Source: a phage. Taken from it: 64,000 bases of DNA. The notes below the pieces were generated by a model. That model did not search any database. It worked only from the letters and a program-made list of their open reading frames with translations, and was not told the origin of the DNA. Both the position numbers and the translations under genes were made by a program. The stretch lies in sequence record PZ452584.1; one strand, written 5' to 3'. Shown here in pieces: positions 24,824-30,793 of the stretch (position 1 is the first letter of the stretch; the number at the start of each line of letters is the position of its first letter).

Positions 24824-25942
24824 ATGGAAAAATTTATGGCAGAGTTTGGACAAGGATATGTCCAAACGCCATTTTTATCGGAAAGCAATTCAGTAAGATA
24901 CAAAATAAGTATAGCGGGTTCTTGCCCGCTTTCTACTGCAGGACCACCATATGTTAAATTTCAGGATAATCCTGTAGGAAGTCAAACATTTAGCGCAGGC
25001 CTTCATTTAAGAGTTTTTGACCCTTCCACCGGAGCATTAGTTGATAGTAAGTCATATGCTTTTTCGACTTCAAATGATACTACATCTGCTGCCTTTGTTA
25101 GTTTCATGAATTCTATTTCAAGCAATAGACTTGTTGCTATATTAACTAACGGAAAGGTTAATTTTCCTCCTGAAGTACTATCTTGGTTAAGAACAGCAGG
25201 AACGTCTGCTTTTCCATCTGACTCTGTATTGTTAAGATTTGATGTATCATATGCTGCTTTTTACACTTCTTCTAAAAGAGCTATTGCATTAGAGCATGTT
25301 AAATTAAGTAATAGAAAAAGCACAGATGATTATCAAACTATTTTAGATGTTGTATTTGACAGTTTAGAAGACGTTGGAGCTACCGGGTTTCCAAGAAGAA
25401 CATATGAAAGCGTTGAGCAATTCATGTCAGCAGTTGGTGGAACTAATAACGAAATTGCGCGTCTACCAACTTCATCCGCGATAAGTAAACTTTCTGACTA
25501 CAATTTAATTCCTGGTGATGTGCTTTATCTTAAAGCACAACTATATGCTGATGCAGATTTACTCGCTCTTGGAACTACGAATATATCTATTAGATTTTAT
25601 AATGAATCGGATGGATATATTTCTTCAACACACGCTGAGTTTACTGGTCAAGCTGGGTCATGGGAATTAAAGGAAGACTATGTAGTTGTTCCTGAAAATG
25701 CAGTAGGATTTACGATATATGCACAAAGAACTGCACAAGCAGGTCAAGGTGGCATGAGGAATTTAAGTTTTTCTGAAGTATCAAGAAATGGCGGAATTTC
25801 AAAACCTGCAGAATTTGGCGTCAATGGTATTCGAGTTAATTATGTCTGTGAATCTGCTTCACCTCCAGATATAATGGTACTTCCTACACAAGCATCGTCT
25901 AAAACTGGTAAAGTGTTTGGACAAGAATTTAGAGAAGTATAA
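24824..25942 (+). CDS. 35: gp35 long tail fibre hinge connector
   Basis: 372-aa ORF directly after gene 34; same length as T4 gp35. Confidence 0.88.
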   Translation: MEKFMAEFGQGYVQTPFLSESNSVRYKISIAGSCPLSTAGPPYVKFQDNPVGSQTFSAGLHLRVFDPSTGALVDSKSYAFSTSNDTTSAAFVSFMNSISSNRLVAILTNGKVNFPPEVLSWLRTAGTSAFPSDSVLLRFDVSYAAFYTSSKRAIALEHVKLSNRKSTDDYQTILDVVFDSLEDVGATGFPRRTYESVEQFMSAVGGTNNEIARLPTSSAISKLSDYNLIPGDVLYLKAQLYADADLLALGTTNISIRFYNESDGYISSTHAEFTGQAGSWELKEDYVVVPENAVGFTIYAQRTAQAGQGGMRNLSFSEVSRNGGISKPAEFGVNGIRVNYVCESASPPDIMVLPTQASSKTGKVFGQEFREV

Positions 25943-26679: not shown

Positions 26680-29600
26680 ATGGCTACTTTAAAACAAATA
26701 CAATTTAAAAGAAGCAAAACCGCAGGAGCACGTCCTGCCGCTTCAGTATTAGCCGAAGGTGAATTGGCTATAAACTTAAAAGACCGTGTACTTTTTACTA
26801 AAGATGACCAAGGAAATATTATTGATCTTGGTTTTGCTAAGGGCGGTAGTATTGACGGGAATGTTATTCATATAGGAAACTATAACCAAACTGGTGATTA
26901 TACTTTAAATGGCGCATTAACTCAGACAGGTAATTTTAATTTAACTGGTATTGCTCGAGTAACTCGCGATATTATTGCCGCTGGGCAGATTATGACTGAA
27001 GGCGGAGAACTTATTACAAAAAGTTCAGGTACAGCACATGTTCGTTTTTTCGATGGCAATAGCCGCGAACGTGGAATCATTTATGCCCCGGCTAATGATG
27101 GTTTAACTACACAAGTACTTAATATCAGGGTTCAAGACTATGCCGCTGGTAGCGAAAGCACTTATGCATTTTCAGGCAGTGGCCTATTTACTTCACCTGA
27201 AGTATCAGCATGGAAATCTATTTCGTCTCCACAAATTCTGACCGACAAAGTTATTACAAACGGGAAGAAGACAGGCGATTATGATATCTATTCATTATCA
27301 AATAACACTCCATTGGCAGAAAGCGAAACGGCTATTAACCACCTCCGTGTTATGCGAAATGCTGTAGGAGCAGGTATTTTCCACGAAGTTAATGTTAATG
27401 ACGGAATAACCTGGTATTCCGGAGATGGCTTAAACACTTATCTTTGGTCGTTTAACTGGTCCGGTGGATTGAAAGCGGGTCATTCTATTTCTGTAGGTCT
27501 TCCTCACGGTTCTAAAAATTATTCAGAAATGGGCACGGCTTCTATTGCTTTAGGAGATAATGATACTGGGTTTCAATGGCATCAGGACGGATATTATTTT
27601 AGCGTTAATAATGGAATAAAAACGTTTTTATTTAGTCCCAGCGAAACAACTAGCCTAAGAAAATTTGTAGCTGGATATTCTACTAACGGAACCGATTTAA
27701 CTACTCCTCCGACTGAAAACTATGCTCTTGCTACTGTCGTGACATATCACGATAATAACGCGTTTGGAGATGGCCAGACTCTTTTAGGATATTATCAAGG
27801 CGGTAATTATCATCACTATTTCCGTGGTAAAGGTACTACAAACATTAATACTCACGGCGGTTTGTTAGTTACTCCCGGTAATGTAGATGTGGTCGGCGGC
27901 ATGGTTACCATTGATGGTAAAAATTATGCTTCTAGTGTGCTTTTTAAAGGAAATACTACAGGATATAGTTCAGTTGATAATATAGAGCTCAAAGTTTGGG
28001 GTGACACTTTTAATACGGTAGGTGGTACTCGTAAAAACGTAATGGAAACATCTGATGCTACTGGCTGGATGCATTATATTCAACGAACTACAGCAGGTAA
28101 AGTTGAGTCCTATTTAAATGGTACCATGAATGTAAATGAAAGCATCAACGTCAGTAAAGAAGTTAACGCCTCTGGCACTATTGCTAGTAATGCTGTCAAT
28201 GCGCTTCGCATTTGGAATGCAGATTATGGAGCCATTTTTAGACGTTCAGAAGGCAGTCTTCATATTATTCCAACTGCTTATGGTGAAGGCAAAAATGGTG
28301 ATATCGGTCCACTTCGCCCGTTTAGTATGGCTTTAGATACCGGTAAAGTTACTATTCCAGATTTACAATCAAGTTACAATACGTTCGCTGCGAACGGCTA
28401 TATTAAATTTGTTGGTCATGGAGCGGGTGCTGGCGAATATGATATTCAATACGACCAAGCAGCTCCCATTTTCCAGGAAATCGATGATGATGCCGTAAGT
28501 AAATATTACCCAATTGTTAAGCAAAAATACCTTCAAGGTAAAGCTGTGTGGTCTTTAGGTACTGAAATAGAATCTGGTACTTTTATTTTACATCATTTAA
28601 AAGAAGATGGAACACAAGCCCATACCTCAAGATTTAATGCTGATGGTACAGTTAACTTCCCTGATAACGTGCAGGTTGGTGGGGGTGAAGCTACTATTGG
28701 CAAAAATGGTAACATCTGGTCTGATATCTGGAAAACGTTTACTTCTGCCGGTGATGTAACCAATCTTCTTGGTGCTGTCTATAGCCGTGTTTCAAAAGAA
28801 GGCGATACGCTGACAGGCCGCTTAACTATTAATGCCAACTCGGATGCTATTGTTATTAACAGTGCTGCAACCGAATCTGGTTATGTGAAAGGACAAAAAG
28901 CAGGCGTTGATAACTGGTATGTAGGTAATGGCGGCGCCGATAATGCTCTATCGTTTTATAGTTTCAGAACCAATTCAGGCGTTAATATTCATAATAGTGG
29001 AGAAATTGCTTTAGCTCCTCAAGGGTCGGATACTTTTTATTTTAATAGGGACCGTCTTTATATAAAGGGTTCGCACTGGGTTGCACATAAATCTGGCGCT
29101 TGGGCCGACCAATGGGGCTTAGAAGCTCCTGTGTTTGTGGATTTTGGTAATGTTGGTAATGATAGTTATTATCCTATTATTAAAGGAAGATCTGGTATTA
29201 CGAATGAAGGATACATATCTGGTGTTGATTTTGGTATGCGACGCATTACTAATAACTGGGCACAAGGTATTATCCGTGTAGGTAATCAGGAAAACGGTTC
29301 CGACCCACAAGCTATCTATGAATTTCACCACAATGGAGTTATGTATGTTCCTAACATGGTTAAAACCGGAGCAAGATTATCAGCTGGCGCTGGTGACCCG
29401 GTGTGGCAAGGCGCATGCGTTGCTATTGGTGATAATGATACCGGATTAGTTCATGGTGGTGATGGGCGAATTAATATGGTTGCAAATGGAGTGCATATTG
29501 CTTCATGGTCTTCATCCCATCATGAACACACTGGGCTTTGGGGCACCGACGGCGCGTTTTGGACTGAAACCGGAAGAGCTATTATTTCATTTGGACATTT

Positions 29601-29988
29601 AATTCAACAGAATGACAGCTATTCAACATATGTCCGCGATGTTTATGTCCGCTCTGATATTCGTGTTAAAAAGAACCTCGTTAAATTTGAAAATGCTTCT
29701 GAGAAGCTTTCTAAAATTAACGGTTACACTTATATGCAGAAGCGAGGCCTAGATGAAGAAGGTAATCAGAAATGGGAACCTAACGCCGGTTTGATAGCTC
29801 AAGAAGTTCAAGCTATTTTACCAGAATTAGTTGAAGGTGACCCGGATGGTGAAGCTTTACTTCGTTTGAACTATAATGGTATAATTGGTTTAAATACAGC
29901 TGCAATCAATGAGCATACTGCAGAAATTGCAGAACTTAAGTCAGAGATTGAAGAGCTTAAAAAATTAGTTAAATCATTGTTAAAATAA
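26680..29988 (+). CDS. 37: gp37 long tail fibre distal subunit with C-terminal intramolecular-chaperone-like domain
   Basis: 1102-aa ORF following gene 36; N-terminus conserved with T-even gp37; C-terminus DIRVKKNL...coiled-coil resembles self-cleaving chaperone domains. Confidence 0.88.
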
Positions 29989-29993
29989 TAAGA

Positions 29994-30007
29994 GGGGCTT
30001 CGGCCCC
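29994..30007 (+). other. GGGGC-UUCG-GCCCC hairpin between genes 37 and 38
   Basis: No T-run; directly followed by gene 38 RBS, so probably a stabilising or processing hairpin. Confidence 0.4.
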
Positions 30008-30019
30008 TTGGAGGTTTAT

Positions 30020-30793
30020 ATGGCAGTTGAAGGACCGTGGGTAGGATGGTCTGCGAGGGTACAAACTGGAGACCCTTGGATGGGTGGTGCCGCGCAGAGA
30101 TTGAGAATGGGAATTCCGTTTTGGATGAGTAATATGATAGGTCGATCTGTTGAAGTAATTCACACCCTTGGAGCAGACCATAACTTCAATGGTCAATGGT
30201 TCCGAGACAGATGTTTTGAGGCAGGTAGTACACCTATAGTGTTTAATATCACTGGAGATTTAGTATCATATTCTAAAGATGTTCCTTTATTCTTCATGTA
30301 TGGAGATACACCGAATGAATATGTTCAGTTGAATATACACGGCGTAACGATGTATGGACGTGGCGGTAATGGCGGTAGCAATAGTCCTGGCTCAGCTGGA
30401 GGTCATTGTATTCAAAACGATATTGGTGGGAGACTAAGAATTAATAATGGTGGAGCTATTGCAGGCGGCGGTGGCGGCGGTGGCGGTGGTAACAGGGGTA
30501 GACTAGTATTTGGTGGTGGCGGTGGTCGCCCATTCGGCGGTGGCGGGTCTTCCTCTCATATGAGTTCTGCTGCAACCGCTGGCACCATTTACGCTCCGGG
30601 TGCAGGATCTGTCGGTGAGGGGTCTCTTAGTGCATATACAGGCGGGTCTGGTGGTGAAGTTGGCTCCGCAGGAGGTAGATGTAATACTCACGGTACCGGT
30701 ACAGAATATGACGGCGGTGCTGCTGGTTATGCCGTCATAGGGTCTGCTCCAACGTGGATAAATGTTGGAGCAATATATGGTCCAAGAGTATAA
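30020..30793 (+). CDS. 38: gp38 receptor-recognising adhesin (T2/T6 type, glycine-rich motifs)
   Basis: ATG 30020 with GGAGG 5 nt upstream; 257 aa with poly-Gly blocks ([26 protein letters not shown]); too long for T4-type gp38 chaperone (183 aa). Confidence 0.8.
30464..30547 (+). repeat. (GGY)n glycine-codon tracts inside gene 38
   Basis: ggcggcggtggcggcggtggcggtggt and two further GGY runs encoding poly-Gly blocks. Confidence 0.8.

Follow-up and report, generated by a model that had tools for sequence, protein, structure and literature searches.

How does a long tail fiber whose distal subunit lacks the needle tip of T4 come to carry a receptor-recognizing end? The question is posed by gene 37 of a T-even phage (Straboviridae, Tevenvirinae) represented by a stretch of 64,000 nucleotides from sequence record PZ452584.1, the whole of which was analyzed here and is called the window. 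An earlier note on this DNA had proposed that the gene 37 product (gp37) ends in a domain resembling the self-cleaving chaperones of other phage fibers and spikes, that this domain is removed by proteolysis, and that the gp38 adhesin encoded downstream binds to the tip that is thereby exposed. The reading we favor is much the same, and we assign it a probability of roughly nine in ten: a C-terminal Peptidase_S74 chaperone trimerizes gp37 and cleaves itself off between R991 and S992, after which gp38 caps the tip.

Over the 24 kb surrounding gene 37, the window has approximately 93-94% identity to many T4-like phages of Escherichia and Shigella, and its plus-strand gene order (34, encoding 1289 aa, then 35, 36, 37, 38 and t) is that of T4, T2, Ac3 and RB69. 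The open reading frame list places gene 37, which encodes the precursor of the distal subunit of the long tail fiber, at positions 26680..29988 of the plus strand, and it bears out the length given earlier: 1102 aa (119.1 kDa), plus the stop codon, with a sequence that ends in ...KKLVKSLLK. At the DNA level the nearest relatives of this gene are those of Ac3 (91.4% identity) and RB69 (85.5%), and its shaft has Pfam matches to Gp34_trimer and gp37_trimer. A separate observation concerns the fiber hinge protein gp35 (24824-25942), whose residues 59-128 match the Pfam family ILEI (PF15711; E = 1.9e-8, above the curated cutoff), which has the interleukin-like EMT inducer or FAM3 fold; the gp35 proteins of T4 and T2 match it too, and this constitutes a domain similarity between phages and eukaryotes. 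Rfam and tRNA scans of the entire 64,000-nt window gave no matches.

A C-terminal intramolecular chaperone domain of the Peptidase_S74 family makes up the last 111 residues of gp37 (residues 992-1102; 29653..29985, plus strand; 12.4 kDa). The Pfam search that had been suggested as a check matched residues 992-1051 to Peptidase_S74 (PF13884, "chaperone of endosialidase") over profile positions 1-57 of 58, with an E value of 7.5e-13 and a score of 49 bits, the curated gathering cutoff for this family being 22 bits. The domain lies at the extreme C-terminus of the 1102-residue chain, behind a shaft and tip akin to the gp34/gp37 trimer domains and to the tip of S16 gp37. A phmmer search of the PDB aligned residues 911-1102 with the distal subunit of the S16 long tail fiber (6f45_A; E = 3.6e-44), and it also found a weak match to the MyRF ICA domain (E = 0.0086). 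The likeness to chaperone domains that cleave themselves is thus confirmed and goes far beyond chance. The part of the original proposal that does not stand is the boundary, which had been drawn at Y984 to give a domain of about 120 residues; the eight-residue stretch YVRDVYVR is assigned to the mature tip, outside the chaperone domain, which begins at S992.

Relatives match the same family. A homologue search with the C-terminal 202 aa yielded 20 proteins, mostly short fragments, a set that suffices for an alignment and is no census; PF13884 is present in all 20. A better gauge of how widely the domain has spread is a tblastn search of phage genomes, in which the chaperone domain matched 1041 records; for 171 of these the amino-acid identity was 95-99%. 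As controls, the gp37 proteins of T2 (1341 aa), Ac3 and RB69 (1103 aa each) all carry Peptidase_S74 at their C-termini. The gp37 of T4, whose length of 1026 aa had been correctly quoted for comparison, has no S74 match by Pfam and has Collar and Phage_fiber repeats at its end. Conversely, the Pfam search of the gp37 studied here gave no Collar or Phage_fiber match, and this protein falls outside the T4-type needle-tip class.

The domain opens with S992-D993-I-R-V-K997, that is, with an S-D-x3-K motif, and in an alignment of 21 sequences (this gp37 and the 20 database homologues, down to approximately 30% identity) S992, D993 and K997 are invariant. Their counterparts in other phages point to the chemistry that may be expected. 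In the T5 protein pb1, the catalytic pair Ser1264 and Lys1269, five residues apart, cuts the Thr1263-Ser1264 bond, and a Ser-to-Ala change abolishes the cleavage, a result described before for another intramolecular chaperone domain like it (PMC4690869). Ser992 corresponds to Ser1264, and the S992/K997 spacing is that of the T5 pair. In S16, according to the summary of Dunne et al. (2018) in PMC7917993, the last 113 residues of gp37 are autocleaved after trimerization, between the serines of DLNVS^SDRRIKK, and the surface on which gp38 docks is thereby exposed; these S16 findings are taken second-hand from PMC7917993, PMC7289586 and PMC9608196. The corresponding motif in the fPS phages is DVYIR^SDGRLKI (PMC7917993), and our gp37 aligns to the S16 site as DVYVR^SDIRVKK. 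Its motif therefore has the S16 form (VR^SDIRVKK against VS^SDRRIKK), the differences being that the nucleophilic position is preceded by Arg here and by Ser in S16, and that the chaperone has 111 residues rather than 113.

Because of this homology to relatives such as S16, T2 and T5, we predict that gp37 cleaves itself. The predicted scissile bond is Arg991/Ser992 (29650..29655, plus strand), located by its position in the motif, with Ser992 (TCT, 29653-29655) as the predicted nucleophile and Lys997 (AAA; 29668..29670, plus strand), the invariant lysine at Ser+5, as the predicted general base of a Ser-Lys pair. A cut at this point would leave a fiber subunit of 991 aa and approximately 107 kDa and would expose the docking face for gp38. 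The predicted mature gp37 (residues 1-991; 26680..29652, plus strand; 106.7 kDa), whose end is placed by the conserved position of the serine relative to the S16 and T5 sites, would terminate in ...YVRDVYVR991. Its distal tip (residues 911-991; 29410..29652, plus strand), which aligns to residues 25-91 of 6f45_A, is the predicted region of gp38 docking.

It might be argued that the S74-like domain instead stays on the virion fiber as a C-terminal knob, and that gp38 attaches elsewhere or alongside; the evidence on gp37 here is its sequence and a predicted structure. We consider this very unlikely. The cleavage serine and the lysine are both intact and invariant, and the close homologue in S16 is described in PMC7917993 as cleaved, with exposure of the gp38 dock as the result. 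Similarly, the account of T2 and T6 in PMC3157838, which cites Drexler, Riede and Henning (1986), has the C-terminus of gp37 cleaved and the shortened fiber then capped by gp38. In T5, it is only the processed protein that inhibits phage infection by competition (PMC4690869).

An alternative of similarly low probability is that the C-terminus is removed by a host protease or another phage protease, the domain being only an aid to trimerization and folding. The 1986 report of T2 processing leaves room for such an enzyme, since the passage of PMC3157838 that cites it is silent on the protease. Nevertheless, the exact S-D-x3-K motif is kept down to approximately 30% identity, which argues for selection on catalysis itself; furthermore, the loss of pb1 cleavage in the T5 serine mutant and the description of the S16 protein as autocleaving both speak against a second enzyme. 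Autocleavage at R991/S992 remains our preferred reading.

The predicted structure of the domain is consistent with the same interpretation. An AlphaFold monomer model of residues 985-1102 (118 aa) has a mean pLDDT of 91.4; in it, a terminal helix of 37 residues comes after a short alpha/beta unit that includes a beta-hairpin. The modeled gp37 domain has the fold characteristic of C-terminal intramolecular chaperone domains, and it matches the solved chaperones of T5, K1F and GA-1 as well as the MyRF ICA domain. The long C-terminal helix (residues 1065-1101; 29872..29982, plus strand; model positions 81-117, pLDDT 93-98) is a candidate for a trimerizing coiled coil. This clean result came from modeling the chaperone alone. 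A 202-aa monomer model of tip plus chaperone was dropped; in it, residues 901-989 had a pLDDT below 50 and the Foldseek match to 3gw6 was poor (TM 0.33). In T5 and K1F, the folding sensor consists of an Arg and an Asp of neighboring chains and lies upstream of the cleavage site. The last residues of gp37, about 35 in number, are a generic heptad-like helix for which coiled coils of unrelated proteins such as NEMO also come up as weak matches (E = 1.7-2), and one could suppose from this that there is no real chaperone domain, just a chance or low-complexity match from a coiled-coil tail; the probability of this is negligible, the idea being already refuted by the Pfam, tblastn and fold matches, which fall outside the helix.

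The partner to which the exposed tip would be offered is encoded immediately downstream. Gene 38 (30020..30793, plus strand) encodes a T2-type receptor-recognizing adhesin of 257 aa and is separated from gene 37 by a gap of 31 nt. Its likely start is the ATG at 30020, which has a GGAGG upstream (30010-30014) and agrees with the annotations of Ac3 and RB69; the program-made list of reading frames opens the gene at a TTG at 30008 (261 aa). The product has Pfam matches to GP38 (E = 2.5e-69) and Gp38_N (E = 1.3e-19), and its residues 1-254 match the gp38 of S16 (6f45_D; E = 6.5e-52), so the earlier description of the downstream gene as an adhesin was right, and the adhesin is of the T2 type. Given the adjoining adhesin gene and the homologous distal tip of gp37, the fiber tip would be of the T2/S16 type. 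A further PDB match of gp38, to 9v85_A (a GFP-gp38 fusion; E = 1.6e-78; residues 37-257), exceeds that to S16 gp38 and means that a structure is available for a near relative of the receptor-binding domain.

The attachment domain at the N-terminus of gp38 (residues 1-40; 30020..30139, plus strand), which covers all 40 profile positions of Gp38_N, is predicted to dock on the cleaved tip of gp37. The N-terminal 60 residues align to S16 gp38, with W7, W20 and W35 opposite S16 tryptophans; the role of such tryptophan prongs is taken from PMC7917993. Residues 1-45 are identical to those of Ac3 and RB69, and the copies of the chaperone domain in these two phages have 94-100% identity to ours. Since C-terminal subtypes of gp37 always pair with matching N-terminal subtypes of gp38 (PMC7917993), these two identities fit a single gp37/gp38 pairing subtype. 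In the PDB entry 6F45, gp37 is present as three chains and gp38 as one; by analogy, one gp38 per gp37 trimer is to be expected.

The sequence of events under the favored reading, self-cleavage followed by capping, can be sketched as follows. The chaperone domains would set three gp37 chains in register, with the terminal helix forming a trimeric coiled coil as in T5, and the chaperone trimer would nucleate the folding of the distal fiber from its C-terminal end. Once folded, the tip would place Ser992 by Lys997, and the serine activated by this lysine would cut the Arg991-Ser992 bond in each chain. The domain of 12.4 kDa (111 residues) would then leave, and the mature gp37 of 991 residues (106.7 kDa) would remain. 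Its exposed distal face would be capped by gp38, docked through the 40-residue, tryptophan-bearing N-terminal domain, and the docked protein would present its glycine-rich receptor-binding domain for receptor recognition.

The arrangement can be compared with that of other systems. The likeness to S16 (6F45) covers both partners: homology of the gp37 tip and chaperone extends across residues 911-1102, that of gp38 across the whole protein, and the genes stand in the order 37-38. The differences here are a 12-residue insertion in the gp37 tip and variable loops of gp38 that are unlike those of S16. T2 gp37 similarly has an S74 domain (residues 1243-1300), in which the motif reads NVYIRSDIRLKSN, and a gp38 adhesin is encoded downstream of it. 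However, T2 gp37 is longer (1341 aa) and 31-34% identical, a figure that applies only to the regions alignable by BLASTP; T2 also has another subtype of the gp37-tip/gp38-N-terminus pair, with 44% identity between the gp38 proteins across their first 147 residues. The K1F endosialidase (3GW6), the GA-1 neck appendage (3GUD) and T5 pb1 (4UW8) share just 14-20% sequence identity with the chaperone, and the client domains differ from gp37: a tailspike, an appendage and a bullet-shaped receptor-binding domain, respectively. In those three proteins the product of cleavage is the functional tip, whereas in gp37 it is predicted to be a face on which a separate adhesin docks.

In T4, gp37 occupies the same position in the fiber, its N-terminus and shaft are homologous to ours, and the gene order is shared. 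Nevertheless, T4 gp37 is without S74, and its needle tip of Collar and Phage_fiber repeats is itself the adhesin. The gp38 of T4 is unrelated and serves as an assembly chaperone, without becoming part of the fiber, in contrast to the adhesin-type product of the downstream gene here; the window has no T4-type gp38 chaperone because its gp37 has an internal one. The internal chaperone carries no implication for any need of gp57A, the other separate chaperone of T4 gp37, whose gene lies elsewhere in the genome on the T4 map and would not be expected to fall within the window.

The closest relatives are Ac3 and RB69. Their gp37 proteins (1103 aa) have 85% amino-acid identity to ours, and their chaperones, gp38 N-termini and intercistronic hairpins are alike. 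The difference from Ac3 lies in the shaft, which is a mosaic. Residues 1-150 and 301-600 are 100% identical to Ac3, but identity drops to 14-66% (per 50-aa bins) over residues 601-800, which are JS98-like; the corresponding DNA (28480-29080) is closest to the JS98-like phages TH40 (94.2%) and JS98 (88.5%). Residues 251-300 are a second patch that diverges from Ac3. Such a pattern suggests that segments of the shaft have been swapped between T-even lineages, while the module of tip, chaperone and gp38 would have been kept in its Ac3/RB69-like form.

A more speculative idea is that the released 12.4 kDa chaperone trimer, instead of simply being discarded, has a second role in the infected cell, for example in timing or gating the loading of gp38 or in trans on another trimeric fiber protein. 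Such a role would help to explain why the chaperone remains 94-100% identical among phages despite divergence or recombination in the shafts of their gp37 proteins. This identity is equally well explained by constraints on folding and by use of the region as a recombination linker beside the conserved gp38 N-terminus, and we give the second role only a very slim chance.

Between the stop codon of gene 37 and the ribosome-binding site of gene 38 lies an intercistronic C(UUCG)G hairpin (29992..30009, plus strand) with a 7-bp stem and a UUCG loop. The hairpin, GAGGGGC-UUCG-GCCCCUU, forms within the minimum free energy fold of the 51 nt from 29975 to 30025 (-15.2 kcal/mol), and it is kept at the gene 37/38 junction of Ac3, RB69, T2 and T4, in the last of these despite unrelated coding sequence on both flanks. 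Hairpins of this kind are known from the intercistronic regions of T4. The junction hairpin could be an RNA stability element, a translation-coupling element or a conserved recombination linker. Elsewhere in the window, hairpins around CTTCGG, with at least four flanking complementary bases, bring the total to 11 (1807, 1905, 19440, 25950, 29994, 36299, 38713, 38941, 44222, 54444 and 59709). Two of them are on the plus strand, within the plus-strand tail fiber block, and nine are on the minus strand, outside it; the sign of the GC skew flips across approximately 22-32 kb. From this strand split and the skew flip, the CTTCGG hairpins appear to track the direction of transcription.

The arrangement described here is the standard architecture of T-even phages with a gp38 adhesin, the textbook T2/S16 arrangement, and as such it is already known. 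The processing of T2 and T6 gp37 (reported in PMC3157838) and the S16 autocleavage with its solved gp37-gp38 tip (as related in PMC7917993) precede it, and so do a curated Pfam family that covers the gp37 proteins of T2, Ac3 and RB69 and the 171 records at 95-99% identity. The value of the analysis consequently lies in annotation and engineering; it reveals no new biology. For annotation, residues 1-991 should be taken as the mature fiber, and the specificity of receptor binding sits in gp38, not in gp37. In fiber expression or host-range swaps, the chaperone domain and the matching pair of gp37 tip and gp38 N-terminus must stay together.
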